Program-made: the position numbers and the translations under genes
The notes under the pieces: generated by a model
What the model saw: the letters and a program-made list of their open reading frames with translations, nothing else
The model's database searches: none
What the model was told of the DNA's origin: nothing
Source of the DNA: Polyangiaceae bacterium
Lineage (GTDB): Bacteria; Myxococcota_A; Polyangia; Polyangiales; Polyangiaceae
NCBI GenBank assembly: GCA_044376115.1
Contig: JBILLK010000051.1
Location: 1-26,623, forward strand
Direction: 5' to 3'
DNA: 26,623 nucleotides
Part shown: piece by piece, positions 473 through 19,321 of the stretch
Position numbering within the stretch: position 1 is the first letter of the stretch
Layout: each line of letters starts with the position of its first letter

Positions 473-3400
473 TCACGGAACCTTCACCTTCTTCTCCCCA
501 CTCCCCGAAAGGCTAATCGCCGAAAAGCTCTTGCCCGACCGCAGTTCGAGCGCGCGGGCGAGGTAAACGTCGGGTTTGCCGGCCTGTTCGTTGAGGGAGC
601 ACGAGACGAGCGGGGCGAGGGATAGCGGTTTATCGCCTTGCATGATGTAGCCCCAGCCCTGCTCGAGTTTGCCTCGTACGGTGCGTTCGCGGATGGGGAA
701 GTGTGAAGGGTTGCCCTGCAATGCTCGGACGCTGTAGCGCGCGGTGCCGGCTTCGGGATCGTGGCTGACGATGCCGGCGAAGGAGACGAGCGGGGCGTTG
801 CGGAGGGCGGCGAGCCCTTGCTCGAATCGCAGCCACAGGTCCCGTAGCTGCGCCTCGTCGGCGGCGACGGCCTCCTCTGCACCGGTGATGCCGTGGGCGA
901 AGTCATTGCGGTCGGGGATCACCAGCGTCTCGATCTCGCTGGCGATCTCCGAGCGTTCGCCGGACTTCGTAAGCAAGATGCGCACGCTACGGCTGAGGCC
1001 GTCGTTTGCGTCTTCCGGCAACAGCGCCGCAAGGCCGCATGCGAGCTGGAACCATGCGCCCATGCTGACCGGCCCGCTGTTCACCTTGCCAATCAAGCTC
1101 TGCGCGGCGGCAGGCAGCGCGCCGCCGTTGCGATCCTTGAGCACGGCGATCGCGATCGCGACCAGGAAGGTGAGCGACTTGTCGAAGGCGTCACGGAGCG
1201 ATTTGACCCGCAAGACGGCGTTCGCGTGGGAGGCCACGATCGCGTCGAATACGGCGATGGGGAAGGGCAGCTCGCCGCGGTCCTCCCTCGGCTCGGTGAC
1301 GTCCTCCTCGCCATCGACTTGCGCAGCGGCCTCCGAGCCGCCCTCCGACATGTTGACCTTCATCCGCTCGGCCTGCTCGATCACGAGCTGTGCGGCCTTC
1401 TCGCATTGGTCCGGCGGGTAGCCGCTCTTTTTGAGCAGCCGCCTCAGTTCGATGCGCAACTTTGACTGCACCGACTTCTTGCGATGCCAGTCGAGGGTGG
1501 CCTTGGTGCGGACGACCTCGCCGAGCATCTTGGCGATCTTGGCCAGCCCTTCGTCCTTCATTGCTTCGAGCGCGCTTGCGTTCTCGGCCAGTGCGTCGAA
1601 AAAGGCGCTTTCTTCGGGCGAGAGCTTGAGTGCCGTGCTGCGCGCATCGACCTCGCGTAGCTCCTTGGCCATCGCCAACAGCTCCTCGAGCACCTCGACG
1701 TTGGTGATGCTGCGGGTGCGATAGCGCCGCAACGCGTCCTCGAGCATTTCGGAGAAGCGCTTGCCTTGGACGACGTTGCGCTGTTGCCGCTTGCGGACCT
1801 CGTCGCGCAGCAGCCGTTCGAGCAGCGCTGCCGCGAGGCTCTTGTGCTTCATTCCGCGCACCTCGGCCAGGAACTCCGGCGAGAGGATCGAGATGTCCGG
1901 ACGCTCGAGCCCAGCGGCTGCAAATACGTCGACGATCTCCGAGCTAACCAGCGCGTTCGATACGATCTGTTTGACCGCGTGTTGCAACTCGCCGGTGCTG
2001 AGCCTGCGTGCGCCCTCGAGTTTGATCAACCCCGCGCGCACCGCTTGGTAGAAGGCGACCTCGTCGCGAACCTCATCGCATTGTTCATCCGGGACCGAGG
2101 CGGCGAAGGCGCTGGTCAGCTTGCTGACCGCCTGGGCGAAGAGCTCGTGCCCATCGGGGGGAGGCGCGTGCTTGGCGTGTTTGGCCTTTCCGCTTGTGGG
2201 CCGGCTGCTTTGGTCCTCGCTGCCTCGCTGCGCGAGGACGTGCTCGCGCGCCGCCGGCAACATCGCCAGTCGCTTAGCCGGCTTGCCGTTGAGAAAGCCC
2301 TGTACGTCGAAGCCGTGGAACACATCCCGACAGATCGCGAGCTGCTCGAGCATCACGCTGACGATGGCTTCCTTCTTACTCGTGGGATCTCCGCGGCCCT
2401 CGCTCTTGCGATAGGTGGCGAGCGCCTGCTTCAAGAAGGAAGCGATACCGATGTAGTCGACGACCAGGCCACCGGGCTTGTCACCGAATACCCGATTCAC
2501 CCGCGCGATCGCCTGCATCAGGTTGTGACCTTGCATCGGCTTGTCGACGTACAGCGTGTGCAGGCAAGGCGCGTCAAAGCCGGTTAGCCACATATCGCGC
2601 ACGATCACGATCTTGAGCGGATCTTCCGCGTCTTTGAAGCGGTCGGCCAAACGCTCGCGCTTCGCCTTTGTGCGCACGTGCGAGCGCACCGGCTCTTTGT
2701 CGCTGGCCGAGCCGGTGATGACCACCTTGATGGCCCCGGCCTCGTCCGAGGCGTCCTCCCAGTGCGGTCGCAGCGCGACGATGTGCCTGTAGAGCTCCGC
2801 TGCGATGCGCCGACTCATGCACACGACCAGCGCCTTGCCGGCGAGGCCTTCGCTGCGACGCTCGTAATGCTCGACCAGGTCTTTGGCCACGAGCTTGAGC
2901 CGCTTCTCGCTGCCGACCAAAACCTCGAGCGTGCTCCACTCGCTTTTGAGCGCCTCGCGCGCTGTTTCTTCCTCGCCTTCAGTCAGCTCCTCGAACTCGG
3001 GATCGATCTTGGGCCGCTCCTCCTCGGAGAGGTCGAGGCGCGCCAGTCGGTTCTCGTAATAGATGGGGACGGTGGCCTTGTCTTCGACGGCCTGCAGGAT
3101 GTCGTAGACGCTGATGTGGTTGCCGAAGACCTCGATCGTGCTCCTGTCGTCGAGCTCGACCGGTGTACCGGTGAAGCCGATGAAGGAGGCTTTGGGCAGG
3201 GCGTCGCGCAGATGTTTGGCGAGGCCATAGGACTTCTTGCCAGTCTTGCGGTTGAACTTGGCCTCGAAGCCGTATTGCGTGCGATGCGCTTCATCGGCGA
3301 TCACCACGATGTTGCGGCGGGTGGAGAGCGGCTCGCTTTCCTCCTCGTCCTCGGGAGCGAACTTCTGAATGGTGGTGAAGTAGACGCCGCCCGTGGCAGT

Positions 3401-4531
3401 GCGCAGTAGCTCCCGCAGGTGCGCGCGGCTCTCCGCCTGCACTGGGTCTTGCCGCAAGAGCGACTTCGACATGGCGAAGGTGCCGAACAGCTGCTCATCG
3501 AGATCGTTGCGATCGGTGAGGACGACCAGCGTGGGGTTGCTCATGCGCCGGTCGAGCACGAGCTTGCGCGCATAGAACACCATGGTCAGGCTCTTGCCCG
3601 AGCCTTGGGTGTGCCACACCACGCCGACCCGGCGATCCCCGCCTTTGCCGGCTGCGCGCGCTGTCTCCTCCACCGCGCGCCGGACCGCATGGAACTGGTG
3701 ATAGGCGGCGATCTTCTTGTGCACCACGGTGCCGTCGCTGCCGCCGACGTGCTCGAAGGTGACGAAGTTCTGAACGAAGTCGAGCAGGCGCTCTTTCTGG
3801 AACAGGCCGCGCACCAGCACCTCGAGCGGCTGGGCATGTTTCGGCGCGTCTTGCTCGCCCTCCACCGTGCGCCAGCGCGCGTAGCGTGAGGCATCCGCGG
3901 TGAGCGAGCCGACCCGCGCCTCGACGTCATCCGAGGCGATCAAGAGCACGTTGGCCAGCAGCAGCGAAGGCACATCCTCGCGGTAGTTGCGTAGCTGCTG
4001 GATGGCCTTCAGCACGTCCGCTTGGGCGTCGCTCGGATTTTTGAGCTCGAACAGCGCGAGCGGCAGGCCGTTCACATACACGACCACGTCAGCGATGCGC
4101 GGCCGCCCGGTCCCGCGCTGACGATCGATCACCGTCACCTGGCTGGTCACCATCCAGTCATTGGCGTCCGGGTTCTCGAAATCGATCAGCGTCACCCGCT
4201 CCCCGGTGTTGCGGCCCTGCTCGTCCATCACATCCAGCTCGATGCCGTCGGTGAGGGCCCGATGCAGCCCCTCGTTGTCGAGTGCGAGCGTGGCCTTGTC
4301 GCGGCGCTCGACGATCTTCAGCGCCTGCTCGACTGCGTCCTCCGAAAGGTCAGGGTTCAAGCGCCGAATGGCAGCGGAGAGTCGGCCGACCAGGATCGCG
4401 TCGGTAAGATGCGAGCGCTCCTCGTGGACCGAGTCCGGATCGAGATGGTCCGGCGGCAAGACCTCGTAGCCCAGCTCCGCAAACCATTCGAGCGTCGCGA
4501 CTTCGAGGTCCGACTCGCTGACGGCGGGCAT
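473..4531 (-). CDS. hsdR: Type I restriction enzyme R subunit with an extra C-terminal HEPN-like domain
   Basis: Nuclease motif [17 protein letters not shown] and QLRNY; Walker [36 protein letters not shown]3387-like tail ending around GYPPD..EQAE, then ~290 extra residues containing RNDFAH. Confidence 0.95.
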
Positions 4532-4533
4532 GG

Positions 4534-5910
4534 TTAGAGCACCTCCGACGCAAGCCGTTCGGCCTCGGGCACGCGCAGTTCGCCGGAGAGCAGCTTGGGG
4601 AGGAGGGCGTCACGGAGAGCCGTCAGCGAAATCATGGCTGACTCATCCTCGAAGCGACGCGAGAGCGCTGAGACCAGTGAGAGAAGTGGCTTGAGGTCTG
4701 GGCGAGGGGGGAGCGCTACGGGGAAGGCGAGAAAGTCCTCTCGGCTTATCGACAGGTTTGTTGTTCCCATCGCGTGTGCACGACTGTGCGTACGGAACTC
4801 GGGGCTTCGCAGGGACCAGTAAACAAACTCGGATAGCCCATCGACTTCCGGAACGATCAACTTGACGGTGTCCTGGGTGAGACGTCCCAGCGGAACTGTC
4901 GGCGGTACGCGCGCGACGCTACCGAGCAAATCGCCGGATTGCGTTACATCTTTGAGTGAGGCAAAGAGCTCGCCTGGCCGAAGTATGAGCTTCTCGGGGG
5001 ACTCGCCTCCATAGGTGCGCAACGAATCACGTCGAAAACCTCCGTCACGTCGGATGGACGCGAGCCCAAGAAGAACAGGTCCAGGCTCACCAATATGCGC
5101 GCTCTTGTAGGTTGTACCGCGTTGGAGCTCTAGGAGGCTCCCAACTCTCGTATTGCTCCATCCTGCGGGTATGGGTCCGAGTTGGGAGTCTTCGAACTTG
5201 CCAGGAAACAGCTTTGCCGTCTCTGCATCCATCCCCTCTGGCTGCCGGCCCTCCATCTTCGCCCGCACCGGATCGAAGTCGACGAACCACGATTGAAACA
5301 GCGCGCGCGCCATCGCCTCGAGCGTCTCGTTCGTCCGACGGTTCAGCTCAATCTTGTCGTCGAGCGCACCGAGGATGCGGGCGATGGCGCGTTGCTCGGG
5401 GAGCGGCGGGCAAGGAACCTTGAACGCTTCTATATGGCCTTTTGTAATCGCGCGCCGCGAGCCCCCCGCATTGAAAGACTCGATATATGGCTTCACGTTC
5501 GGGTGTGTGAGAAAGGAAAGTAGATATCCCGGGTGAGCGACATCTGATGCAGCGCGAATGATCGACACGTGTTGATTGACGCAAGCAGGTAGAACCGACT
5601 CCGGAACCACGCACGCGCGACCAAAAGTGACGCCGTCACCAGTGATATTTAGAAGAATATCCCCCGGGCTGAGCCAAACCCCGCGAAGGCGGTGCGCCTG
5701 TTCATCTGAAATGAACGCTAAGCCTTCCTCATCGAAGCGCCGGTCAAAGACGTTCTGGCTCCGAATTAGAGCGAAACCCGTCCTGTTCTGTTGGTACGCA
5801 TCGGATCCACCTGTAGGCGTCGCACCCGAGCCGATCTTCGTTGTGATCGCCTGTAACGGAACGTGATCCCAGAGCGAAGCATATGCTGTAGGCGCGGTTT
5901 TACCTTTCAT
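4534..5910 (-). CDS. hsdS: Type I RM specificity subunit
   Basis: Two target-recognition domains separated by the conserved [45 protein letters not shown] helix; C-terminal [14 protein letters not shown]. Confidence 0.95.
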
Positions 5911-7031
5911 TGCCCACCTCCCAACTCCGCCTCAATCTGTTCCACCGTCGGCAAGCTCCCCTCCAGCTCTTTCGGCAGCGACGCGAGGATCTGCGTCTCC
6001 CACTGCGCAACGCCGATCGGCTTTGTCATGTCGCGGAGGGCGTACTCCACGACCACGCGGTTCTTCGACTTGCACAACAGGAGCCCAATGCTCGGCTTGT
6101 CGTCGGGGTGGCGCAAAAGGTCATCCACCGCGGACAAGTAGAAGTTCAGCTTGCCGGCAAACTCGGGCTCGAACGGCACGACCTTGAGCTCGATAACCAC
6201 ATAAGCGCGAAGCTTCAGGTGATAAAACAATAGGTCTAGTATGTAATCCTCCTCACCCACCTCGAGTCGGACCTGGCGGCCAACGAAGGCAAAGCCGACG
6301 CCGAGCTCGAGCAGGAACTTCTGGATGTGATCGACGAGGCCTTGTTCGAGCTCGGCCTCACGGCGAGGGTCGGCCGTGCCGAGGAAGTCGAACAGGTACG
6401 GATCCTTGAAGATCTGCGCTGCGAGGTCGGACTCGCCGTGCGGCAGCGCCTTGTCGAAGTTGGTGATGGCCTTGCCCGCGCGCGTGTGGGTCTGCGCGGC
6501 CATCTGGTGTTCGAGCGTGGCGCGGCTCCAGCCGCCGGTGATCGCGTGCTCAACGTAGTGGAGGCGCGCCGCCGGATCTTTGATGGCCTGGATGAGGCGG
6601 ACGAGGTGTCCCCATGGCAATTGTGAAACAAGCTGTTTCACTTTCTCGGCGTGGGGAGCGTGGCCCGGAAACGCCTCCGCAAACGCTCGCATGAAGAGCA
6701 AATTGCGCGGGGAGAAGCCCTTCATGTCGGGGAAGGTCTGGTTCAAGTCGGAGGACAGGCGGTCAATGATGCGCGCGCCCCAGCCCGCTTGCTCCTGCCG
6801 CTCGAGGATCAGCTGCCCAAGGTCCCAATAGAGGAGCACGAGCGCGCTGTTTGCCGTCTGAACAGTGCGAAGTCGCGCCTCTTGGATGCGCTGCTTCATC
6901 TCCCGGACGGTGTTCGCATAGTCCGCCGGCAAGCCTGCCTTGGCGGGTGCAACGGGGAACGTCGTGTCCGCGCCTCGCGTGCGACCGCGAGACAACCGCT
7001 TCGGCTCGGCGGCCTTCGGTTTAGAAGCCAT
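5907..7031 (-). CDS. yhcG: YhcG / DUF1016 PDDEXK nuclease-domain protein
   Basis: [62 protein letters not shown]. This family is commonly embedded in type I RM operons. Confidence 0.92.
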
Positions 7032-8673
7032 AACCCAGGCTCGCGAGGTTCTTCTTGATCTCCTTCTCGAGCTTCTGCCCTTCGGCGAACTGCTGGGCGA
7101 GCGTCGCCGTGAGGCGCTTCATCTTGGCGTCGAAGGGCTCACCGTCTTCCTCCACCTCTTCGGCGCCCACGTAGCGGCCGGGCGTCAACACGTAGCCGTG
7201 GCTGGCGATTTCCTCGAGCTTGGCGGCCTTGCAGAAGCCGGCCTCATCGGCGTATTTGCCAGCGCCTTTCTCCCCGCGCCAGGCGTGGTAGGTGCGGGCG
7301 ATGCGCGCGATGTCCTCATCGGATAGCTCGCGGTGCACGCGGTCCACCAAGGTGCCGAGCTTGCGCGCGTCAATGAACAGCACCTCGCCCTTACGCTTGC
7401 GATACGGCGTTGCAGCCTTGTTTTTGGCGAAGACCCAGACGCACACCGGGATCTGCGTCGCGTAAAAGAGCTGGCCCGGCATCGCCACCAAACAATCGAC
7501 GACGTCCTTGTCCACCATGGCTTGGCGGATCGTGCCTTCACCGGACTGTTGCGAGGACATCGAGCCGTTGGCCATCACCACGGCGCCAACGCCCTTGTCC
7601 GGGTGCAGGTGATGCAGAATGTGCTGCATCCAAGCGAAGTTCGCGTTGCCCGCAGGCGGCACCCCAAACTGCCAGCGCACGTCCTCCTTCAGCTTGTCCC
7701 CACCCCAATCGCTAATGTTGAACGGCGGATTCGCTAATACGTATTCGGCCTTCAGGCCCTTATGCAGATCATTGCGGAAGCTGTCGGCGAAGGTTGCCCC
7801 GAGGTTGGACTCGATGCCGCGGATAGCCAGGTTCATCTTCGCCAGACGCCAGGTGGTGGCGTTGAACTCCTGGCCAAAGACCGAAATATCCGTGGCGCTA
7901 CCGCCGTGCGCCTCCAGGAACTTCTCACTCTGGACGAACATGCCGCCCGAGCCGCAACACGGATCGAAGACGCGGCCCTTCATCGGCTCGATCATCTCGA
8001 CCATCACCCGCACGACCGATTGCGGCGTGTAGAAGTCACCGCCCAAGCGGCCCTCGGCCGAGGCGAACTTGGAGAGGAAGTACTCGTACACCCGGCCGAG
8101 CACGTCCTTGGTCGGGTTCTCCTTGTCGTGCAGCGCAACGCCGCTGAGCAGGTCGATCAGCTCGCCCAGCCGATGTTTGTCGAGCGCGGGCCGCGCGTAC
8201 TCTCGCGGCAAGGTTTGTCGAAGCGCGTCGTTCTCCCGCTCGATCGCCTCCATCGCCTCGTCGATCTTCTTGCCGATCGACGGCTGCTTGGCCTCCTGCT
8301 GCAAGCTCGACCAGCGCGCCTTCTCCGGCACCCAAAAGACGTTCTCGGCGCTGTACTGCTCCTTGTCATCCACCTCACTCGGGTCCTCCGCGGCGATCAA
8401 TTCGCGCCGCAGCTCGAACGCGTCGGAGATGTACTTGAGGAAGATCAGCCCAAGCACCACGTGCTTGTATTCTGCCGGATCCAAGCTACCGCGCAGCTTG
8501 TCCGCCGCGAGCCAGAGCTTCTCCTCAAAGCCGATCACCGCCCCGGAGGTCTTGTTGGCTTTGCCCCGGCCGCCCTTGCTCGAAGGCGGCGGCGTGCTCT
8601 CGACGGTCGTGCCCTGAGCCTTCGCGCGTGGAGCCTTCGCTTTGGTGGGGCCATGCCCCTTCTTTGCTTTCAT
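7021..8673 (-). CDS. hsdM: Type I RM N6-adenine methyltransferase M subunit (start re-called to ATG 8673 or GTG 8676; the ORF-track start at 9030 overlaps the sigma gene)
   Basis: [35 protein letters not shown]-binding FDPCCGSGG, catalytic [12 protein letters not shown]. Confidence 0.95.
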
Positions 8674-8683
8674 CACCACGTCG

Positions 8684-8710
8684 CACGCCCCAGGTTGCCG
8701 AGTTCTGACA
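8684..8710 (-). promoter_or_regulatory. ECF-type promoter motif, copy 1 (upstream of the hsdM operon)
   Basis: Minus strand TGTCAGA-actcggcaacctggg-GCGTG, 7 nt before GTG 8676 and 10 nt before ATG 8673. Confidence 0.65.
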
Positions 8711-8796: not shown

Positions 8797-9339
8797 GTGG
8801 CGACGGGGGCCGAGGCACTTGAGTGGAATGAGGTCGTGGACAGGCTGCGCGCCTTGCCCGAGGCAGAGCGTTTTGGCCACGCCGATGCTGGCCGACTCTA
8901 CATGCTGGCGCAGCGGCTTGCCCCGGGGCTCTTGCGTGGGTTCACGCTTCGGACCGAGACGCCCGAGGACCTCGCGAGCGGGCTGCTTGCCGAGAAGTTC
9001 GCGCAGCTCGTCGAGGATAGCGGGGACCATGCATGGCCCTATTTTGTGGCCGCCCTTAGGAACCGAGCCATCTCGTGGATCCGTCGTCCGCTATCCAAAG
9101 TCAGTTCCAAGGAGATTGAGGGTGTGCGCTCGACGGAGGACGAAACGCGATATCACGCTCGTCAGCACCTAACGATCGTATGGAGGAAGCTCAGTCAGAA
9201 AGAGCAGGAGATCTTCGCAGCGGACGACGCAGGCGAAAGCCGGGAGGCAATCGCCGCGCGATTCAAGACGAGCCGCGCCAACATCGACCAGATCATTTCG
9301 CGAGCGCGCGAGCGGTTGAGAGCGCAGGGGTTAGGATGA
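8797..9339 (+). CDS. ECF-type sigma-70 factor (~180 aa; C-terminal part of ORF 7762..9339)
   Basis: Region 2-like [24 protein letters not shown]; region 4 [44 protein letters not shown] start inferred 7 nt after an extended -10 (TGGTAGCGT, 8781-8789). Confidence 0.82.
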
Positions 9340-10088
9340 GCCTGCTACTTCCATCGAGGCGGATCGATCTCCCCGGCGGCTATCGCTGGGAGCCCAACTT
9401 GGTCGATTTGGAGGCATGGCAGGCGCACCTGCTCAAGCACCCCCTCGGCCTCTGGGCAACGCGCGAGTTGGGCCGGTCGTGGGATCATGAGAGCTGGACC
9501 AAGACCACGCCTCCAGTGCTGGACGAGCAGAAGCGTTCACAGCTGTTCGCGGCGATCGCTCAGGCTAGCTCGGCCGCGAATGCCTGCGCGGTGCCGGAGG
9601 TATTCGGTGTGCAATCGTCACAAGAAACGGAACCGCAGTGCTACCGCTGCAAGGCGCCGTTGCTCACACAGTGCTTTGGCCTCATGAACTCTATCGGCAT
9701 CTCGCCCCGCTACGCTGAACTCACGGAACAGGTCGTCGCAAGCTTGAGTGAGGGCGAGGCGGTTGAACGGCGGGCGCTAGCTGCAACGCTGCAAAGAACA
9801 GCACGCCGCATGGAGGATTGGTCCAACCTGGTCGTTATGGCCGTTGGCAACCTTGGCCGTGAGGCTGGACACGGGCTCCGCCTGACACGGGGCGACGGGA
9901 TCCGGGTCGAGCTCAGGCTCGGCCTCAACCACCGACTGCAATGGCGGACGACCTACCGTATCCCCGAGATTGCTGCGCATTCGGGGGCCTGGGGGTACCT
10001 ACTGAAGCTGCCCGACCCAGCGCCCAAACTTTCTTTGTCAGATGTCTACGTCGTCCCGCGTGCCTGGTGGCAAGAACATGGAAGCTGA
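9336..10088 (+). CDS. Hypothetical protein (250 aa) with a Cys cluster, coupled to the sigma gene
   Basis: ATGA overlap with the sigma stop; contains C..CYRC..C; no family recognised. Confidence 0.75.
   Translation: MSLLLPSRRIDLPGGYRWEPNLVDLEAWQAHLLKHPLGLWATRELGRSWDHESWTKTTPPVLDEQKRSQLFAAIAQASSAANACAVPEVFGVQSSQETEPQCYRCKAPLLTQCFGLMNSIGISPRYAELTEQVVASLSEGEAVERRALAATLQRTARRMEDWSNLVVMAVGNLGREAGHGLRLTRGDGIRVELRLGLNHRLQWRTTYRIPEIAAHSGAWGYLLKLPDPAPKLSLSDVYVVPRAWWQEHGS
10036..10062 (+). promoter_or_regulatory. ECF-type promoter motif, copy 2 (internal, upstream of the putative anti-sigma)
   Basis: TGTCAGA-tgtctacgtcgtccc-GCGTG, 15 nt before ATG 10078. Confidence 0.55.
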
Positions 10089-11208
10089 ACGCACCCCAAT
10101 GCATGAGCTGACGGCAGGTGGTCTCGAAGGTCTGGCAGACCAGCCGTTTGGCACGATGGATACGCAGGCGCTGATCGTAGCGATGACCGTGCTCGGCGAT
10201 GCTGTGCGGCTTGGCATGCCAGTACCGTCCGCGCTTCTTCAGCGCGTGACCCGAGAACTCACGCAGGCTCAAATCGAAGGCGTGTTCACTTCGCTCAAGG
10301 AGGAGGTGGGCGGTTGGGCATTGCCGCGGAAGCTTGGTCACGACGACGATCCGATGTTGGAGTGGGCAATCGGCCGACGTGACGAGATCGAGAGCGTTCT
10401 CATCGGTGCGCGTCGCATCTTCATGCCGCGCGGAGTCTTGATCGACGCCTCTGCACAGGCGCAGAGCTTGGCGGTTGCGATCAGCCAGCGCGATCTGACC
10501 TGTGGAGGTTCGGTACCTCGCAGCGACGCCGAGAGGCTTCTGGGTCAACGGCTTGAGCTGGTGGCCGAACGCTCGTGGCTAGACAAGCTGAACTGGGCGG
10601 CCGAATCCGAATCGACATCACCTGATGCTTCGCCTCCGGAGCAGCTGGGTCTCGGCCGGCCAAGCTTCGAATCTTTCGCGCGATACGTGATCACCGGGGA
10701 GCTCGCGACCTGGGTTGAGACGGCCGCAAACCGCTCGAGCGATGTTGCAGCGGAATTGGAAGACGTCGTCGCCACCTACCGAGAGCAAGGCAACGTATTG
10801 AGCCTATTGGCGGCGCGTTGGATGCGTGACCGCCGGGCTCAGACCGGGGAGCCCAGGCTGCCGATCGCGTTTCGGCGGGCACGCCTGAGCGAGCAACGGT
10901 TCGCGGCCGCAGACCAAGAAGCCACTGCTGAAGCTGACGCACACGAGCGCAATCTCGGCGTTCTGGCGCCCCTCGACGCCGAAGCCCGGTTCGTAGAGAC
11001 CGACCGCACCCTCACACTCGAAGTGTTTGAAGGCAAGACCACGCTGAAGTCGGTGAGCTTGGATGGTGTGCTGGCGGAGCGGCCTGCAAGCGGGCACACC
11101 TGGTCCATCACCATCCCGTGGGTGCAGCGCGACCGGGCTGTGAAGCTCCAGGTCGTAGATGTCACAGGCAACGCGTTCGAGGAGGCGATCGCCTGGACCG
11201 ACGAGTGA
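10078..11208 (+). CDS. Hypothetical protein (376 aa), putative anti-sigma / protease substrate
   Basis: Overlaps the upstream stop by 11 nt. Helical N-terminal part, linker RRARLSEQRFAAADQEATAEAD, then a ~90-aa beta-rich C-terminal domain. Function is inferred from context only. Confidence 0.7.
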   Translation: MEAERTPMHELTAGGLEGLADQPFGTMDTQALIVAMTVLGDAVRLGMPVPSALLQRVTRELTQAQIEGVFTSLKEEVGGWALPRKLGHDDDPMLEWAIGRRDEIESVLIGARRIFMPRGVLIDASAQAQSLAVAISQRDLTCGGSVPRSDAERLLGQRLELVAERSWLDKLNWAAESESTSPDASPPEQLGLGRPSFESFARYVITGELATWVETAANRSSDVAAELEDVVATYREQGNVLSLLAARWMRDRRAQTGEPRLPIAFRRARLSEQRFAAADQEATAEADAHERNLGVLAPLDAEARFVETDRTLTLEVFEGKTTLKSVSLDGVLAERPASGHTWSITIPWVQRDRAVKLQVVDVTGNAFEEAIAWTDE

Positions 11209-12959
11209 ACCGCGCACAATTCGAGAGAGCCATCACCGACGCAGAGCGGGCGTCGCTCGCCTCCGCCCGCGCCAGGCTGCACCAACTCCGACGATGTTTG
11301 GGCGAGGTGTGGGTCGATGCGGGTTTGCAACGCCGGATGCTTGAGCTTGCCAGGCGGTGCGACGAGGCGCTGCCTGAGATCCCAGCACACGATCTAGCTA
11401 TCGGCGATGCTTGGCTGCTCCTCGTGGCCGAAGCCGGTGGCGCCGGCACTGTCGCCCGAATGAGGGTCGCGCGGCACCGGCCAAGCGCGAACCTCCTCGA
11501 GGCGTTCGAAACCAGCAACGCCGTGATGGGCCTGGCTGCAGCAGCCGCTCAATCGCGACGGTTCGTTCCGCATGAAGCGCTCGGTTTGCGCTTCGAGCTG
11601 GCTGATCAGTCGGTAGTGCGAAGGGTGCAAGGTGGGTCGCTCGGGCTATCAGCCTGTGTAGCGCTCGTATCATCTCTGACAGGGATGCCACCGCGATCAA
11701 ACGTCGCGGGAACTGCGAGGATCGACCCGGCAACGGGCAAGCTCCTATCTGTCACGCATGTAGAGGCGAAGCTTCGTGCACTCCGAGAAGAGTGGCCCCA
11801 TGTCGACACCGTGGTGCTCGCTGGTGACCAACCACTTCCAACCGATCTACGCGGCCTCAGCGTGATTCACGCGAGCGCTTTGCGAGAGGCTCTGGAACCC
11901 TTCGGTCTCAGTCTCGACTCCTTGCCGCAACCTCCGATCGAGAACCTCCGAGCACGGGTGGGTGCGTTTAGCTCCGATGATGCTGTCGCCCACGATCTGG
12001 GCCAATGGATGTCGCGCTCCATCGAGGCCCTGGAGATAGCGCAACTGCTTGAAGCGGAAGAACCGGATCTCGCGGCTCACTCACGGATATGGGCAGCCTT
12101 GTTCGCGTCGCATGCCGGAAGGAACGATCAGGCGGAGCGGATCTTGGCGCAAGTCACCGAAGCTCAGCTAGAGGAGCCAGAGCACCGCGTCATGCGAGCC
12201 GTCGTGCTGGCCTCTGTGCGGATCGATGAGGACCCCAGAGCCGCAGCGACGCTGGGTGCGGACGCCGTTGAGCTGGCCCAAGCGCTGGAGGGTCGAAACT
12301 GGCGGGAGTGGCACGGCAAGGCGCTTGGGACTCATGGCCGCGCGCTGATGCATGCAGGCGAATACAAAGAGGCAGTGCCGCTCCTTCGCAAAGCGTACGA
12401 ACATCACCGCGATCACCTGAGGCGAGAAGCCGGCAGATCGGCTTGCTACCTCTCATGCTGTCTGCGGCTCGCGGGCCGACCATTGGCGGCACTAGAGATG
12501 GCGCAGCTCGCGCACGATTCGGCCGACATTGCGGCAAAGGTCTCCACCGCAGCCAGCTCGACGCTCGCCTACGCGGACCTGGAGAAGGCACGGGCGCTCG
12601 AAGTGTTGGGCCGTTTCGAGGATGCTGCTGTCCTGCTGCAGCGACTGGTGACCACCGGAGCTAGCCATCGTCACTATCCTCGGCTCGGCGCGCATCGAAC
12701 CCTGGCGAGGGTGTTCCGTGCACAGGGCCGCCTACCCGAGGCGGACGACCATCGCCGGCTATGCTGGGATGTCGCATGCGACGAAGGGCAGGGGATCACG
12801 GCACGCAAGCTGGGTCTGGTCGCAGCGTGCGAGGAGCTCGATCACGCAGCCAGTACGCAGCGAGAGCCCATGATCAGCTCGGGCGAAGTCGAGGCGCTCG
12901 CGAGCGTCCTCCTCGGAACAGCCTCGCGAGCCCACACCCTTAAAACCTGGGTCTACTAA
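11205..12959 (+). CDS. Lon-type (S16) protease domain fused to TPR-like repeats, no AAA+ domain (584 aa)
   Basis: GTGA overlap start. VQGGSLGLSACVALVSSLTG..VAGTARID..GKLLSVTHVEAKL..VVL matches the Lon_C core, with Ser145 (11637) and Lys189 (11769) 44 residues apart (43 in E. coli Lon S679/K722). The C-terminal half has TPR-like helices (ALGTHGRALMHAGEYKEAVPLL, LARVFRAQGRLPEA). Confidence 0.8.
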   Translation: MNRAQFERAITDAERASLASARARLHQLRRCLGEVWVDAGLQRRMLELARRCDEALPEIPAHDLAIGDAWLLLVAEAGGAGTVARMRVARHRPSANLLEAFETSNAVMGLAAAAAQSRRFVPHEALGLRFELADQSVVRRVQGGSLGLSACVALVSSLTGMPPRSNVAGTARIDPATGKLLSVTHVEAKLRALREEWPHVDTVVLAGDQPLPTDLRGLSVIHASALREALEPFGLSLDSLPQPPIENLRARVGAFSSDDAVAHDLGQWMSRSIEALEIAQLLEAEEPDLAAHSRIWAALFASHAGRNDQAERILAQVTEAQLEEPEHRVMRAVVLASVRIDEDPRAAATLGADAVELAQALEGRNWREWHGKALGTHGRALMHAGEYKEAVPLLRKAYEHHRDHLRREAGRSACYLSCCLRLAGRPLAALEMAQLAHDSADIAAKVSTAASSTLAYADLEKARALEVLGRFEDAAVLLQRLVTTGASHRHYPRLGAHRTLARVFRAQGRLPEADDHRRLCWDVACDEGQGITARKLGLVAACEELDHAASTQREPMISSGEVEALASVLLGTASRAHTLKTWVY

Positions 12960-12974
12960 ATTCGGAGGATATTC

Positions 12975-13001
12975 TGTCAGAGGCGGGCCGCCTGCCGCGT
13001 G
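12975..13001 (+). promoter_or_regulatory. ECF-type promoter motif, copy 3 (upstream of the coiled-coil nuclease)
   Basis: TGTCAGA-ggcgggccgcctgcc-GCGTG, 8 nt before GTG 13010. Confidence 0.65.
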
Positions 13002-13009
13002 GGGGTTAC

Positions 13010-14722
13010 GTGAACAACGCTGCGGCTCTGGCCGCCTCCTCCGGGCCCACTTCCTCCAACCTCTCGCTCGCTTCGTCGTTGGTGGTCGACGCGACCTTCG
13101 ACGGTGAGACGCTACGAGCCTCCATCTGCGACTCCAGCCAAGAACTCGCTGGCGTCCTTACGCATCTCGAACCTGCACGGCGCTCACGCTTCGTTGAGAC
13201 GGTGTGGACGTCCGGCCTTCGAGCGGCGCTCAATGCGCAGCGGCTCGCCGATGAGGCACGGCTTGACGATATTGGTCGTGAACTTGTGACGACCTTCGGT
13301 GAGAAGCTGGAGGCCTATCACGACCGACAGCACTCCGATCTCGCCCGCGCGCTCGCTGAGTACTTCGATCCCAAGGATGGCCGTGTAGCGGCGCGGATCG
13401 ACGGCTTTCTGCGCGATGGCGGGGAGCTGGCGCGGACGATGGATAAGTATCTATCGGCGGATGGTGAGCTGGCCAAGACGCTCGCACGGTCCTTTGGTGA
13501 GTCGAGTGCGCTCATGAAGCGGCTCAGCCCAACGGACAGTGAGGGCCTGGTGCAGCTCGTTGAGAACAAGCTGCGAGCTGCTGCCGAAGCCCAGCGCGTT
13601 CAGTTCGCGGCCGCGCTCGACCCGGCTAACGAATCCGGCTCGCTTGCTCGCTTCTTCAGCAAGGTGAAGCAGGAACTCAAGTCAGCTGGCGAAGAGCGCG
13701 ACAAGCAGTTCGCTGCGCTCTCACGAACGCTCGATGTCAATGACCCGAGCTCGCCGCTCAGCCGCTTCTTCAGGGAGAGCTCGAACGCAAACCGCGAGAT
13801 GCTCAAGGCGATGAACGCCGAGGATCCTTCTACGCCGCTCGGAGCGATCAAGGCTTCGCTCGTAAGGCAACTCGAGTCGAGCACCAAGTTGCAGCTTGAG
13901 AAACTCGACGCGATGGCGACCGTCCAGCGCGAAGATAGCCTCGCCCTCCGAGAGGCCGTGGCCAAACTCGAGGAGCGGCGTAGAGTCGTGGCGCGTTCCG
14001 CCGCAGCTGGGCCGACCTTCGAGGACGCACTGCTCGTGACCCTAGGCGACATTCTGCGTGGCTCTGGCCTCACCCTCGACGCGACGCGCACCGCCGTCGG
14101 GCTACGACCCAACTGCAAGAAGGGCGACGCGGTCGCGCGCTACGGCGCGGAGTCCAAACATGCCGGCGCTGCCGTGGTCATCGAGGCCAAACACGACGCG
14201 AGCTACAACGTGAGCCGCGCACTCGCCGAGATGGAGGAGGCCCGCAGCAATCGCGATGCTTCCGCAGGACTGTTCGTCATGGCGCGATCGCATGCTCCGG
14301 CTGGGTTCCCGCGGTTTCAGCGGCATGGTCGCGACATACTGCTCACTTGGGATGACGCCGATCCTTCGACGGACGTGGTGCTCGAGGCTGGGCTCCAACT
14401 CGCGCTGTTCATCGCACCGCTCGGCCGCCGTGAGTCTGCGGGGCGCGAAGACATCGAGTCGCTCGCGGACCTCGAGTCCCGCATCGAGAAGGAGCTCGGT
14501 CGCTGGGACGGGGTGCGCAAGAAAGCCGAGCGCATGAGGAAGGACGCGGAAGAGCTGCTCGAGGACGCGCGGAAAGGGGAGAAGGCCCTCGGATTGATGC
14601 TCAAGAGCGCCAAGCACGTGCTGAAGACGCTCGACATCCCGCTTCTCGATGCTGGTTCGTCGCGAGAGCCCGCTCTGCTGCTGGCTGAGCGGAGTGAGTT
14701 CGATTCGGATGCGGCCGAGTGA
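13010..14722 (+). CDS. Coiled-coil protein with a C-terminal PD-(D/E)XK-type nuclease domain (RmuC/DUF2130-like architecture)
   Basis: Long helical/coiled-coil region, then GPTFE..KKGD..VVIEAK..Y (E/D/ExK arrangement) and a closing coiled coil. Confidence 0.7.
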   Translation: MNNAAALAASSGPTSSNLSLASSLVVDATFDGETLRASICDSSQELAGVLTHLEPARRSRFVETVWTSGLRAALNAQRLADEARLDDIGRELVTTFGEKLEAYHDRQHSDLARALAEYFDPKDGRVAARIDGFLRDGGELARTMDKYLSADGELAKTLARSFGESSALMKRLSPTDSEGLVQLVENKLRAAAEAQRVQFAAALDPANESGSLARFFSKVKQELKSAGEERDKQFAALSRTLDVNDPSSPLSRFFRESSNANREMLKAMNAEDPSTPLGAIKASLVRQLESSTKLQLEKLDAMATVQREDSLALREAVAKLEERRRVVARSAAAGPTFEDALLVTLGDILRGSGLTLDATRTAVGLRPNCKKGDAVARYGAESKHAGAAVVIEAKHDASYNVSRALAEMEEARSNRDASAGLFVMARSHAPAGFPRFQRHGRDILLTWDDADPSTDVVLEAGLQLALFIAPLGRRESAGREDIESLADLESRIEKELGRWDGVRKKAERMRKDAEELLEDARKGEKALGLMLKSAKHVLKTLDIPLLDAGSSREPALLLAERSEFDSDAAE

Positions 14723-14756: not shown

Positions 14757-15296
14757 TTAGGACGGCTTCAGACCGAAGAGCTTGAGCTCATCCCTCACGG
14801 CTCGGAGGAGACGCTCGACCGCCCCGCGCGCCGCCATGAAGCTGCCCTGGTAGCCGTCCCAGTCCTCGTACGCGGTTGGCGCCGTGTACTCACCATCGAC
14901 CAGGAACGGGTAGCGGTAGCTGATTTCCTCGGGGGCGTTTCTTGGCGTCGTCGAATCGATCTTCAACAGCGTGGACGCCTCGCCCGCCAGGTTCTTTCTG
15001 ACGAAGGACTGTACCTCACGCTCAAGCAGATGCAGCGCCTTCGACAGCGGAGTGTTGGTCTCTGCAACAGTCTTCAGCGGCGAGTGTTGGAGGAGGAAGA
15101 GCCGCTCGAACTGCGCATGCTCTTCAACGCCACCATTCCAACGCATGAGTGCGAAGGCCTTGATTGCCTTCTCATAGGCTTGCTGAATCCAGTACCGGCG
15201 GTGGCATTCTCGAAGGTCGGCGGACTCAGCGCGCGCCGCGAGCAGGTCGGCGTCAGCCTGCTCGATCCACGCCTTAACCTGCTGCCGCGTGGCCAT
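14757..15296 (-). CDS. HEPN domain protein (start re-called to ATG 15296)
   Basis: WIEQADADLLAA..YWIQQAYEKAIKA..H..RYP, the pattern of HEPN proteins of HEPN/MNT pairs. Confidence 0.8.
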   Translation of the reverse strand: MATRQQVKAWIEQADADLLAARAESADLRECHRRYWIQQAYEKAIKAFALMRWNGGVEEHAQFERLFLLQHSPLKTVAETNTPLSKALHLLEREVQSFVRKNLAGEASTLLKIDSTTPRNAPEEISYRYPFLVDGEYTAPTAYEDWDGYQGSFMAARGAVERLLRAVRDELKLFGLKPS

Positions 15297-15636
15297 TCGT
15301 CGCTCGCGCGATGTCTTGCAGTTCGCGACCGCGAGCGACACCGTGAAGGACCTCGCCGGCTGCGATCTCATGCGCGAGCGCGGGGTCCGCTTGAATGGCG
15401 CGCTTGAGACCATCCAGGTCGGCCGCAATCAGGTTGAGTGGATGGCGAAACGAGCGGCCCGGGTTGAACGCCACCGGGCGCTCCGGGTGCTCGTCGGCGC
15501 CGAACGACGGGATCAGCTCAACGAGCCAGGCTTCTCGATCCTCACGACGAATCCAGATCGCCGTCTCCAACGGGTCGTCCTCGATCGCGGCGTGCGCCTG
15601 AACTAGTTCGAGCATCTCTTCACGGGTGGGAGGCAC
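15274..15636 (-). CDS. Small HEPN partner protein, possibly a degenerate minimal nucleotidyltransferase (MNT)
   Basis: 120 aa, overlaps the HEPN start. C-terminal LAHEIAAGEVLHG resembles MNT tails, but there is no GS..DxD catalytic motif. Confidence 0.6.
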   Translation of the reverse strand: MPPTREEMLELVQAHAAIEDDPLETAIWIRREDREAWLVELIPSFGADEHPERPVAFNPGRSFRHPLNLIAADLDGLKRAIQADPALAHEIAAGEVLHGVARGRELQDIARATNGHAAAG

Positions 15637-16662: not shown

Positions 16663-16694
16663 CCTACGCAGCCTCAAACAATTTTGAACGACCG

Positions 16695-16721
16695 TGTCAG
16701 AAGCTCATGCCCTCAGGAGTG
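16695..16721 (+). promoter_or_regulatory. ECF-type promoter motif, copy 4 (upstream of the helicase)
   Basis: TGTCAGA-agctcatgccctcag-GAGTG, 8 nt before ATG 16730. Confidence 0.6.
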
Positions 16722-16729
16722 TGAAGGGC

Positions 16730-19321
16730 ATGAACAAGCTCCCCGCCTCCTGGTCCCTCCGCTACTCGCTCCCACTTGCCGCCCGCGAGGGTGTCACGGT
16801 TAGCACCGCCTCGCTGAATCTCAGCGAGCAAACGCGCGACTACCTCGATCAGAAGTACCCGAGCGGGCTGTTCCGCCACCAGCACCTAGCGGTCGAGAAG
16901 CTGCTCGCTGGCGACAACGTTTGTATCGCAACCCCCACGGCCTCCGGCAAGAGCGCAGTCTTTCAGACTGCAGCGCTCGAAATCCTGGCGCGCGATCCGG
17001 AAGCACGCATCCTTGCGCTCTATCCGATGAAAGCGCTCGGATGCGAACAAGAGGCCCGCTGGGTCGCGGCGCTCAAGGCGGCTGGCATTGCCGGCGGTGT
17101 TGGCCGAATCGATGGCAACGTGCGGGGGGCGGCGCGCAACCTCGTCTGTTCCAAGTCGCGCGTGCTGATCGCTACACCGGATGTGGTCCATACATGGCTC
17201 CTCACAAGGGCCGCTACGAAGGGCTTTGAGGCCGCCACTCGCTTCGTGCGCAACCTGCGGCTCGTCGTCGTGGATGAGGCCCACACGTACAGCGGCGTCT
17301 TCGGCTCGAACTCGGCCTTCGCCTTCCGCCGCCTTCAGCACATGGCCGGCGTGCTGGGCGGCGGCCTGCAGTGGGTCGCGTGCTCCGCGACGATGAGGGA
17401 CGCGAAGGGGCACCTCGAGCGACTGGTCGGTCGTCCGTTCGCTGTGATCGGCGAGGAGGAAGACAGCTCGCAACGGCATGAGGTCAGCATCGACATGGTC
17501 GCTCCGAACGATGGGGTCGACTTTCACAGTGGCCTCGCCGAGCTACTCGGACAATTGCGTGATAGCGGGGAGCAGTTCCTCGCGTTCTTCGACAGTCGCA
17601 AAGCGAGCGAGCAGATGGCCGCGATTCTCCATCGCGATGAGCCGGGTTCGGATACCGATGGCTTCGATCACTTGCTGGATCGCTCGGTGCTTCCGTATCG
17701 CGCCGGGTATGAAGCCGATCATCGGAAGGTCATCCAGGATCGGCTAACCGACGGCTCGTTGCGCGGCGTCTTATCAACCAGCACGCTCGAACTCGGCCTC
17801 GACCTGCCGCACCTCAAGACGGTCGTCCTGGTCGGCGTACCTAGCTCGGGTACGAACCTGCGTCAGCGGATCGGACGCGTGGGACGAAGTTGTCCGGGCC
17901 GGGTGATCGTCGTCAATACTGGCTCGCTCGGAGACACGCTCGTCTTTGAGCAGCCTTCGCAACTGCTCGCACGGCCATTGCATGAATCCACGATCTACCT
18001 CGAGAACCGGCGCATTCAGTACATCCATGCGATGGCCTTGGCGCGGATCGACGGTGAGCACGACCACGCGGCGCTCGCAGCCAAGCAGCCGAGCGCGAGC
18101 CTATTGCAGTCCGTGGCCTCCTGGCCTGAAGGCTTCCTGGCCTTGTGTGACGCGGAGCATGCAGGAGTGGTGCCGCGTGAGCTACAGGACATGCGGCGCG
18201 ACGCCGGAGAGCAACCGACGTTGACGTTCATGCTCCGGGATGTGGAGCCGCAGTTCGACGTCGAGCAGCGGTCGGGCTTTCGACGCGGGGAGAAGCTGGG
18301 CACGCTCAGTCACGGACAGGTTATGCGCGAGGCCTATCCGGGCGCGGTCTACTACTACACAGGCCGGCCCTATCGCGTAACGGGCGTGAACGTCCGCCAG
18401 CGCAAGGTCTTCGTACAGCCGTGCGCCCGCCATACTACGAAGCCGGTGCCTGTGCGATCGCAGCTCACGCCGCAGAGTCAGGTGTTCGGCGGTTTGAGGT
18501 CCGGTCAGCTCTCGGCGATTGAGTGCGAGCTGCAGCTTTGGCGCAAGGTGCTTGGCTTTTCCGAGCGGGCCGGCTCCAAGGTGGAACAGGTGAACTACCC
18601 GTGCGAAAGCCCCGTCCGCTACGAGCAACCCAACTTCTCCCGCGCGTTGTTCACGACCGGTGTGTGCCTGGCGCACCCAGAGCTCGACAGGCAAGGCGTC
18701 GACCCGGAGATGATCTCTGCGCTACTACTCGAGGCTTTCCTTCACTTCGTTCCCATCGAGCGCCAAGACGTCGACGTGGACACGGACTGCTTGCGTGCGA
18801 GCTGCGCCGGGCTCGAGAAGGGCCGGCGAATCGTCGCGCTTTTCGACCAGGCCGCTGGAGGATTGCGGATCACCGAACGCCTGAGTGACCCTGAGGTGCT
18901 TCGCTCCGTACTGGAGGGGATGGTGGCCATCATTGCCGAGCGGACGACGCTCGCGGTCAAGAATGAGGAGCGTCCGATCTCGCTCGCCACCCGGGCCGCC
19001 CTTGAGGCCATGCGCAACGACGCCCAGCAAGACGTCTTAGCGATCGAAGGCCAGTGCGACCCGCTAGCCGCGTCGGAGCGTGTGGCTGTGCTGCTCCCGA
19101 AGAGCCTCGGCGTCGTTCGCAGCAGGCCCTCGGAGCAGTTCGAGATTCACAAGGTGTTCAATCACCCGACGATGGGCGTCGCGTACCGTGGCGTATTCAT
19201 CGGCTCGAATGGCGAGCGCTCCAGTGCTCAAACCGTGACTGTCGACATGGTCGAGGGGCTTGCGGGCCACGTGGTCCAAGGGTTCTATGATCCCGAGACC
19301 GACGAGCAAGTCGCTGCTTGA
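16730..19321 (+). CDS. SF2 DEAH-box helicase, MrfA/Hrq1/DUF1998-like
   Basis: LFRHQ Q-motif, TPTASGKS, YPMKAL, TPD, DEAH..GVFGS, SAT, YRAGY, LELGLD, QRIGRVGR, EAYPGAVY, LFDQAAGG. Start re-called to ATG 16730. Confidence 0.9.
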   Translation: MNKLPASWSLRYSLPLAAREGVTVSTASLNLSEQTRDYLDQKYPSGLFRHQHLAVEKLLAGDNVCIATPTASGKSAVFQTAALEILARDPEARILALYPMKALGCEQEARWVAALKAAGIAGGVGRIDGNVRGAARNLVCSKSRVLIATPDVVHTWLLTRAATKGFEAATRFVRNLRLVVVDEAHTYSGVFGSNSAFAFRRLQHMAGVLGGGLQWVACSATMRDAKGHLERLVGRPFAVIGEEEDSSQRHEVSIDMVAPNDGVDFHSGLAELLGQLRDSGEQFLAFFDSRKASEQMAAILHRDEPGSDTDGFDHLLDRSVLPYRAGYEADHRKVIQDRLTDGSLRGVLSTSTLELGLDLPHLKTVVLVGVPSSGTNLRQRIGRVGRSCPGRVIVVNTGSLGDTLVFEQPSQLLARPLHESTIYLENRRIQYIHAMALARIDGEHDHAALAAKQPSASLLQSVASWPEGFLALCDAEHAGVVPRELQDMRRDAGEQPTLTFMLRDVEPQFDVEQRSGFRRGEKLGTLSHGQVMREAYPGAVYYYTGRPYRVTGVNVRQRKVFVQPCARHTTKPVPVRSQLTPQSQVFGGLRSGQLSAIECELQLWRKVLGFSERAGSKVEQVNYPCESPVRYEQPNFSRALFTTGVCLAHPELDRQGVDPEMISALLLEAFLHFVPIERQDVDVDTDCLRASCAGLEKGRRIVALFDQAAGGLRITERLSDPEVLRSVLEGMVAIIAERTTLAVKNEERPISLATRAALEAMRNDAQQDVLAIEGQCDPLAASERVAVLLPKSLGVVRSRPSEQFEIHKVFNHPTMGVAYRGVFIGSNGERSSAQTVTVDMVEGLAGHVVQGFYDPETDEQVAA

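Follow-up and report, generated by a model that had tools for sequence, protein, structure and literature searches.

A putative protease-controlled sigma factor switch next to defense genes in Polyangiaceae

How bacteria induce their defense systems upon infection is a largely open question, and type I restriction-modification (RM) is usually taken as constitutive. A 26,623-nucleotide stretch of DNA from a Polyangiaceae bacterium (GenBank assembly GCA_044376115.1, contig JBILLK010000051.1, positions 1 to 26,623 of the forward strand; hereafter, the window) bears on this question. In the window, a type I RM operon (hsdM-yhcG-hsdS-hsdR; 473..8673 on the − strand, with the hsdM start at 8673) lies divergently from a four-gene operon (8797–12959, + strand) that encodes a divergent ECF (extracytoplasmic function)-type sigma factor, an accessory protein, a predicted soluble anti-sigma factor, and a protease with tetratricopeptide repeats (TPRs). 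Does the protease control the sigma factor, and does the sigma factor control the RM genes? We argue that the four-gene operon probably encodes a cytoplasmic sigma/anti-sigma/protease switch that is similar to CalpL-CalpT-CalpS, with TPRs as the input, and that it acts upstream of defense genes.

The four open reading frames (ORFs) encode proteins of 180, 250, 376, and 584 amino acids. All of their junctions overlap (ATGA between genes 1 and 2, 11 nt between genes 2 and 3, and GTGA between genes 3 and 4). These ORFs and overlaps, and the back-to-back arrangement with the RM operon (identified with Pfam), are as described in an earlier interpretation of this DNA from its letters (the sequence-only reading).

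The protease and its predicted substrate

Gene 4 (11205..12959, +; 584 amino acids) matches the families Lon_C (E = 0.013) and TPR_12 (E = 1e-8). Its structural model, which has a predicted local distance difference test (pLDDT) of 91.6, comprises a 60-residue helical start, a Lon domain, and a TPR superhelix. In the model, residues 61–236 match the proteolytic domains of Lon proteases (1xhk_B: Z = 18.2, root-mean-square deviation (rmsd) 2.5, 164 residues aligned), and residues ~242–582 align to TPR superhelices. The best TPR match (8rte_B: Z = 18.9, rmsd 4.0, 301 residues aligned) is a peptide-bound Rap protein. Of 8000 candidates that we scored, 27 are relatives of full or nearly full length, and the Ser145/Lys189 dyad (codons at 11637–11639 and 11769–11771, +) is invariant (28/28). 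Neither the family scan nor the model has an AAA+ module, and because 60 residues precede the protease domain, there is no room for an ATPase domain. We rejected a housekeeping Lon as the identity of gene 4. There is no SAVED domain either: in the model, TPRs make up the last 340 residues, which are all-helical. The protease domain is of the Lon type, not the CHAT His-Cys type. The model, the fold matches, and the invariant dyad bear out the sequence-only reading, which had described gene 4 as a Lon_C protease with an intact dyad and TPRs and with no AAA+ or SAVED domain. We take the Lon domain to be ATP-independent, and a ligand would activate it.

Within the TPRs, H303, D341, T376, R379, H383, R421, E460, and R463 are invariant (28/28), and the strong conservation of the TPR surface suggests a single conserved ligand. 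The protein ends with W-V-Y (window positions 12948–12956), with W582 in 25 of 28 sequences and Y584 in 27 of 28; this conserved W-x-Y might be a self-docking inhibitory tail. The maximum hydropathy over 19 residues is 1.37.

Gene 3 (10078..11208, +; 376 amino acids) is the candidate substrate. With a full HMMER search, we obtained 148 relatives (at 50% clustering), and our alignment has 113 rows (gene 3 and 112 near full-length relatives). The order of its parts is a helical domain, a small helical unit, a linker with the word xAAA, and an immunoglobulin (Ig)-like domain. The model (pLDDT 91.5) is helical at residues 1–255 (mostly above 90), and then has a disordered linker and a beta-sandwich at residues 286–376 (10933..11205, +). 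There is no membrane helix (the maximum hydropathy over 19 residues is 1.62). The linker is poorly conserved except for A276 (104/113), A277 (109/113), and A278 (92/113). AAA is present in the linker in 92 of 113 members of the family, versus 7.7% of windows of the same size outside the linker. LAAAT, LAAAD, and LAAAS occur most often, and the median length downstream of the AAA word is 99 residues.

Similar cuts have been described for Calp. CalpL cuts CalpT inside LAAA, which gives a 10.9-kDa C-terminal fragment, and a C-degron is needed for sigma release (bioRxiv 2024.05.08.593097). SsCalpT from Sulfurihydrogenibium is cut at VA/ST, ahead of an Ig-fold piece of 8.7 kDa, and the Lon pocket of CalpL fits Ala or Gly (bioRxiv 2021.12.06.471393). 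By analogy, we predict that F275-A276-A277-A278 of gene 3 (10900..10911, +) is the cut site and that cleavage would expose a C-terminal xAA degron. These features of the sequence point to gene 3, and not to gene 2, as the putative CalpT-like substrate. We detected no homology of gene 3 to CalpT. The Ig-like domain has only generic Ig-like matches (best match 9ll2_A: Z = 7.5, rmsd 2.7, 85 residues aligned), which speak neither for nor against a relationship to CalpT10/DUF2080. CalpL, CalpT10, and Csx30 are not among the listed fold matches of genes 3 and 4, which excludes nothing.

Gene 3 would also hold the ECF sigma factor at rest. Residues 195–236 (10660..10785, +) are a conserved short-helix unit (P195 in 108/113, G207 in 110/113, A217 in 110/113, and L227 in 104/113) with no conserved Cys or His. 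This unit may resemble a class I anti-sigma domain that lacks the zinc ligands. In locus L033 (L033:8414-9981, from genome G114), a sigma gene is followed by the N-terminal domain and the 195–259 unit of gene 3, joined to a hydrophobic helix and a coiled coil. There is no Ig domain and no protease, and the promoter motif that we describe below lies ahead of the next gene. L033 keeps the 195–259 unit beside the sigma factor without the protease, as expected of an anti-sigma domain. In L124, which has no sigma gene, the AAA word and the promoter motif are both lost. The 113-row profile had no match among PDB sequences, and residues 1–256 had a best score of 0.81 in the ESM Atlas, which is a lead only. 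A prediction of the complex of the sigma factor and gene 3 scored 0.00; the sigma factor was folded without an alignment, and we do not use this result either way.

Gene 1 (8797..9339, +; 180 amino acids) has sigma regions 2 and 4 only. As a single sequence, it matches TIGR02937 below the curated cut-off (E = 8.3e-9). A profile from a 17-row alignment (A5) matches solved ECF sigma factors over positions 25–183 (E = 8e-11), which confirms the earlier assignment of gene 1 to the ECF sigma factors.

Our tally covers 42 loci and does not count L040 (a near copy of L039) or L033 (no protease). In the 28 loci with a full-length stand-alone protease (the split loci), gene 3 is always directly upstream (28/28), the sigma gene is present in 23, and gene 2 is present in 18. 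Three of the five loci without the sigma gene stop at a contig edge (L017, L121, and L127), and the other two look degenerate (L036 and L124). Gene 2 is missing from seven intact loci (L015, L037, L038, L039, L113, L114, and L119), so the core is the sigma factor, gene 3, and the protease, and gene 2 is accessory. Of the four-gene order that the sequence-only reading had described, the part with gene 3 and the sigma factor stands and the part with gene 2 does not; we rejected an obligatory four-gene unit.

Gene 2 (9336..10088, +; 250 amino acids) lies outside known families. It had no significant match in Pfam, NCBIfam, PADLOC, or PHROGs, no match to RNase families, and no identity in the ESM Atlas (model pLDDT 0.33). 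C84, C102, C105, C113, H31, H35, E52, and R208 are invariant in an alignment of 25 sequences, and the pattern of four cysteines is consistent with a possible metal site. Its H-x-x-K-H word resembles one in some RNase toxins, a likeness that the searches do not support. We rejected a relationship to a cytochrome trimer among the PDB sequences; that match rests on three 8-bit CxxC repeats.

Two other arrangements keep parts of this core. In the fused subtype (12 loci, including L020:8263-11364, L021–L026, and L129–L132), there is no separate gene 3, and extra N-terminal domains are fused to Lon-TPR. The complete proteins have 830–1150 amino acids, and the chain ends with G-E-V-Y. An (R)xAA(A) word lies just ahead of the Lon domain in 7 of 7 aligned proteins, and the fused protein is probably a self-cutting anti-sigma factor. 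The sigma gene is present in 9 of the 12 loci and a different second gene in 8 of the 12. This second gene encodes 480 amino acids with no Pfam match. Its D-x-D-N-V start is presumably like that of PIN/NYN RNases, and RNase families gave no match to it. In the membrane subtype (L133:538-4128 and L134:7212-10943), we found a sigma gene, a gene 3 relative that keeps RWAA, a Lon domain followed by a hydrophobic helix, and TPRs encoded by a gene of their own, whose product probably has a signal peptide. Here the promoter motif lies ahead of a nearby helix-turn-helix (HTH) gene instead.

The protease profile matches in 14 of 401 genomes of the class and in 26 of 401 genomes of the order (these counts overlap and include this genome), and in 1 of 3 other genomes of the same genus. 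The named relatives are from Polyangiaceae and Sorangium; one carrier that can be cultured is Sorangium sp. So ce1078. The gene 3 profile, whose sensitivity is limited, matched in 4 of 401 genomes across the phylum, all from the same order. No relatives were confirmed in viral contigs, plasmids, or phages, and a cluster look-up gave no informative names.

A promoter motif ahead of defense genes

We derived the motif TGTCAG[AG]-N15/16-CGT[CG] from seven regions upstream of the sigma gene and from reading L037. The window holds three copies: 10 nt ahead of the ATG of hsdM (8684..8710, −), 15 nt ahead of the ATG of gene 3, at the 3' end of gene 2 (10036..10062, +), and 8 nt ahead of the GTG of gene 5 (12975..13001, +). 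From its co-location with the operon and its −35/−10 shape, we infer that the motif is an ECF-type promoter that is read by the sigma factor of gene 1. A scan for sigma-70 promoters gave no sites.

The motif is far more common in these loci than expected. In 18 earlier loci, it occurs 31 times, versus 1.5 expected (maximum 4 in 30 simulations); this set left out the window, L034, L035, L037, and L040, and 4 of the 18 were in the first alignment. In 22 loci (362,626 bases) that were fetched after the motif was fixed, it occurs 34 times, versus 1.2 expected (maximum 3 in 20), with at least one copy in 16 of the 22. The excess is at spacers of 15–16 only. Neighboring spacers gave 1–3 matches, except for 9 at spacer 9–10, which probably reflect the inner CGTC of the copies ahead of gene 3. 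The density of the motif near the operon is 12.0 and 9.4 per 100 kb, versus 0.29 per 100 kb in the genome, or ~30–40-fold higher. Ahead of the block of genes with the protease, 26 of the 28 split loci and 8 of the 12 fused loci have a relaxed form of the motif, versus 109 of 6904 genome windows (1.6%). The copy ahead of gene 3 is kept in loci where gene 2 is absent (L015, L039, L113, L114, and L119), so it is not a by-product of the codons of gene 2.

The predicted targets include defense genes, and it is through this shared motif that the link to defense in the sequence-only reading gains support. The motif has the same placement as in the window ahead of hsdM in L034, L035, L115, L117, and the fused-type L130, and ahead of homologs of gene 5 in L020, L034, and L117. 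In L037, which has Cmr genes, it is ahead of cmr1. In genome G826, the operon follows RAMP and cas6 genes; we predicted that a copy would head the cas operon, and there is indeed one ahead of cas10 (L135:13380). Other copies are ahead of SbcD-like genes (L022 and L035) and a ClpP gene (L057). Elsewhere in this genome, the motif precedes genes for a ResIII helicase-HNH protein, a DEDDh exonuclease, an RNA ligase (TIGR02306, above the cut-off), and a DUF7873 protein. Some targets are kinases, FHA proteins, or uncharacterized proteins.

The neighbors of the operon vary. In a raw tally, 7 of the 28 split loci (L038 is doubtful, and possibly a low-complexity match) and 3 of the 12 fused loci have hsdM within ~10 kb. 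Other neighbors are Wadjet, McrBC, GmrSD, HEPN, NACHT/NB-ARC (STAND) proteins with TPR or WD40 repeats, dynamin-like proteins, and E1/E2/JAB proteins; some loci have ordinary neighbors. Two of the 28 loci adjoin type III CRISPR (clustered regularly interspaced short palindromic repeats) operons whose Cas10 has GGDD. The variety of neighbors (RM, type III CRISPR, STAND-TPR/WD40, Wadjet, and McrBC) argues against an RM-specific guard, which we rejected. In the sequence-only reading, the TPRs would sense a phage component or an RM inhibitor, for which our results give no direct support. That reading had also called the operon CRISPR-free. No cas families are among the 15 window proteins scanned, and Cas10, which alone we searched for genome-wide, had no match to its palm (PF22335) in this 95.9% complete genome (the control matched 6 of 14). 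With respect to Cas10, the description fits this genome, and it does not extend to the two loci beside type III operons.

We also noticed features of individual sites and neighbors. Among 87 motif sites in the loci, the ATG is exactly 8 nt past the second half-site in 9, which suggests leaderless or nearly leaderless transcripts, and it is at 15 nt in 12, many of which belong to gene 3 orthologs. Genome G235 (L016:16123-18700; L057–L069) has stretches of short genes (a cREC receiver, ClpP, and unknowns) in which every gene is served by a separate motif copy. These stretches are repeated on two contigs, and there are 22 strict motif sites in this 5.8-Mb genome. An HsdM near the operon has an N-terminal XRE-type HTH (L035:5568-7418; Pfam HTH_3), with similar starts at L130:4928-6697 and L120:2048-3850. 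Ubiquitin-like E1/E2/JAB genes lie beside the operon at L132:2085-6056 and L036:3897-6288, and several of those in L132 carry the motif.

The proposed switch and its alternatives

We propose that, at rest, gene 3 binds the ECF sigma factor. A ligand on the TPR superhelix would activate the Lon domain of gene 4, which would cut gene 3 inside xAAA. The 10-kDa Ig-like domain would drop off, leaving the C-terminal xAA degron, and, if CalpT is a guide, Clp proteolysis would remove the N-terminal fragment and free the sigma factor. The freed sigma factor would transcribe from the motif, which would turn on the adjacent type I RM operon, gene 5, and a few unlinked genes for nucleic-acid enzymes. It would also transcribe genes 3 and 4, which would resupply the anti-sigma factor and the protease, and this negative loop would reset the switch. 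Type III CRISPR operons and SbcCD-like genes would be headed by this promoter in other genomes. Gene 2 would be an optional extra. The likely degron step and the regulon were absent from the sequence-only reading. In the RseA/DegS and RsiW systems, a site-1 cut is also followed by Clp degradation of the anti-sigma remnant, with an Ala-rich degron; these are envelope-stress relays that cross the membrane and use PDZ or site-2 proteases.

The operon shares several features with CalpL-CalpT-CalpS: a predicted ATP-independent Lon domain with a Ser-Lys dyad and a helical N-terminal domain ahead of it, an adjoining putative substrate with an Ala-rich site ahead of a 10-kDa Ig-like domain, and an adjoining ECF sigma factor. 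But gene 4 has a TPR superhelix in place of SAVED, the N-terminal part of gene 3 (1–255) is all-helical in the model instead of MazF-like, and this genome has no Cas10 match. Because it has no SAVED domain, no MazF-like domain, and no Cas10, the operon is not a member of CalpL-CalpT-CalpS. Also, the switch is predicted to act upstream of defense operons, including cas operons, and not downstream of cyclic tetra-adenylate (cA4).

The closest in logic is DdvA-DdvS of Myxococcus xanthus, which controls an island of CBASS (cyclic oligonucleotide-based antiphage signaling system) and CRISPR genes; its trigger is proposed, not identified (PMC11506125). DdvA, which sits in the membrane, combines a zinc anti-sigma domain with a TPR-CHAT cysteine protease in the periplasm, and it is processed by RseP (PMC11506125). 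Both systems combine a myxobacterial ECF sigma factor with an anti-sigma factor and a TPR-protease module, and both would control defense genes. In contrast to DdvA-DdvS, all parts of our operon are predicted to be cytoplasmic, and the protease, which is of the Lon type, is a protein of its own except in the fused subtype. Gene 3 has no membrane helix or zinc anti-sigma domain, and the hydropathy of gene 4 is also low. The commonest target here would be type I RM. In type III-E systems, the TPR-bearing Csx29, which is a CHAT cysteine protease that is activated by Cas7-11 and target RNA, cuts an anti-sigma factor at M427/K428, and sigma sites inside the locus give positive feedback on defense genes (PMC10028731; bioRxiv 2022.08.17.504292). 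Those loci also have an extra small gene beside the sigma and anti-sigma genes, as here, but our protease is Lon-type and its predicted site is a run of Ala. Genes 2 and 3 had no match to Csx31 or Csx30 in Pfam, NCBIfam, PADLOC, or PDB sequences, in searches that had no positive control sequence and in which gene 2 was not folded with an alignment. The Lon-TPR module is not mentioned in the accessible parts of bioRxiv 2023.06.23.546230, PMC8195603, PMC11229360, or PMC7826278. We found no description of the operon in the literature searched, to which most subscription papers and supplements did not belong. It appears to be an undescribed, conserved variant of the protease/anti-sigma/sigma cascade.

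Several observations count against our proposal. Each step of the mechanism, from sigma binding and cleavage to the use of the promoter, is a prediction and not an experimental result, and so is the trigger. Pfam models of anti-sigma factors had no matches in the 113 gene 3 members, and a profile comparison of gene 3 with the N-terminus of the fused subtype was not significant (best P = 0.011). Many of the loci are kin and not independent. Where gene 2 exists, the motif copy ahead of gene 3 overlaps its codons. The genome-wide counts of the motif overlap between five carriers (3–22) and five non-carriers (2–30). L021, L023, and L131 have the sigma gene and no motif ahead of the fused gene, and a strict motif is lacking at C41, the other HsdM-like gene of the window. 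Also, L036 has the motif with no sigma gene detected nearby.

This last observation would fit if the promoter belonged to another sigma factor, with the operon as just one member of that regulon and with other targets for its own sigma factor. Similarly, the non-carrier G263 has 30 strict matches to the motif, and the sigma profile has three further weak matches in this genome. However, of the six sites in G263 that we examined, five are inside ORFs and none are directly ahead of a start codon. Furthermore, the motif is concentrated around the operon and follows it next to different neighbors, so we consider this explanation improbable. We have similarly strong doubts that the protease is an effector that docks on a neighboring defense complex, as Csx29 does on Cas7-11, with toxicity of gene 2 or of the gene 3 fragment as the output. 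The slot after the sigma gene does hold gene 2, with its H-x-x-K-H word and invariant cysteines, or the D-x-D-N-V protein in the fused subtype, and two loci do adjoin type III operons with a GGDD Cas10. But no neighbor is constant, gene 2 is missing from intact loci, neither gene 2 nor the NYN-like protein matched an RNase family, and there is no Cas10 match in this genome. And the promoter points from the sigma factor to defense genes.

What might the TPRs of the proposed sigma switch detect? Our tentative candidate is a conserved cytoplasmic sign of invasion, namely a phage or plasmid protein or peptide, and we rank damaged nucleic acid behind it, as a somewhat doubtful trigger. Gene 4 may be a stand-alone cytoplasmic pattern-recognition protease: its TPRs would detect a conserved invader molecule, and, by way of a CalpT-like cut and degron, a dedicated sigma factor would switch on whatever defense arsenal is nearby (including type I RM and type III CRISPR-Cas). 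We think it rather unlikely that the input is instead nucleic-acid damage or stalled replication, in which case the switch would be a LexA-independent damage response whose regulon includes defense genes. Several of the targets (the RNA ligase, the DEDDh exonuclease, and SbcCD) fit repair as well as defense, which counts against our proposal too; the ResIII helicase-HNH gene also points this way, and the invariant TPR residues R379, R421, R463, H303, and H383 could bind phosphate. Yet no recA or uvr gene is among the motif sites examined, the targets include hsdM and cas10 operons, and the closest TPR folds (Rap, NprR, and LGN) bind peptides. The patchy spread of the protease (26/401 genomes, and 1/3 other genomes of the genus) and its location in defense islands also speak against a damage response. 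The resemblance to the peptide-sensing regulators Rap and NprR would suit a general stress or developmental signaling module of myxobacteria, unrelated to invaders, as would the hydrophobic helix and exported TPR partner of the membrane subtype and the targets that are kinases, FHA proteins, or uncharacterized. However, the promoter is repeatedly ahead of hsdM (the window and five other loci) and cas operons (two loci), and the distribution is patchy; we give this explanation the least weight.

If the proposed TPR-gated sigma switch is correct, then restriction-modification would be infection-inducible, and a Lon-anti-sigma cascade would be placed upstream of RM and CRISPR, not downstream of CRISPR. 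The Calp module would be one sensor-swapped branch of a wider family (with SAVED, soluble TPR, fused self-cutting, and membrane forms), and the switch may be a general on-switch for bacterial immunity. Knowing what the TPRs bind would bring to light a new infection signal. The operon would be a compact, soluble, and testable circuit with named parts (S145, K189, A276–A278, the degron, and the promoter), and a protease that is gated by a ligand, needs no ATP, and cuts at a short Ala-rich site could be put to use as a component of sensors.

Other features of the window

Besides the RM operon, another predicted regulon member in the window is gene 5 (13010..14722, +). It has a long helical region and a PD-(D/E)XK-like motif (E338, D373, and E392-A-K394 are invariant in 4 of 4 sequences), and one homolog has a weak match to Mrr_cat (E = 0.0019). 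These features suggest that gene 5 may be a nuclease.

Next to it, at 14757–15603 (−), are two small genes, possibly a HEPN/MNT-like pair; one has a weak match to HEPN (E = 0.0026). At 16694–19321 (+) is a DEAD/DEAH helicase of 875 amino acids, which matches TIGR03817 below the cut-off (E = 4.9e-69) and is BrxHI-like in PADLOC. HsdR (473–4531, −) has ~290 extra C-terminal residues past its T1RH-like_C match, and its start, by eye, resembles the N-termini of STAND-type neighbors in L113, L118, and L124. In L117 (G946), from the same genus, there are frameshifts in gene 3, gene 5, hsdM, and hsdR, which may reflect sequencing error or decay.

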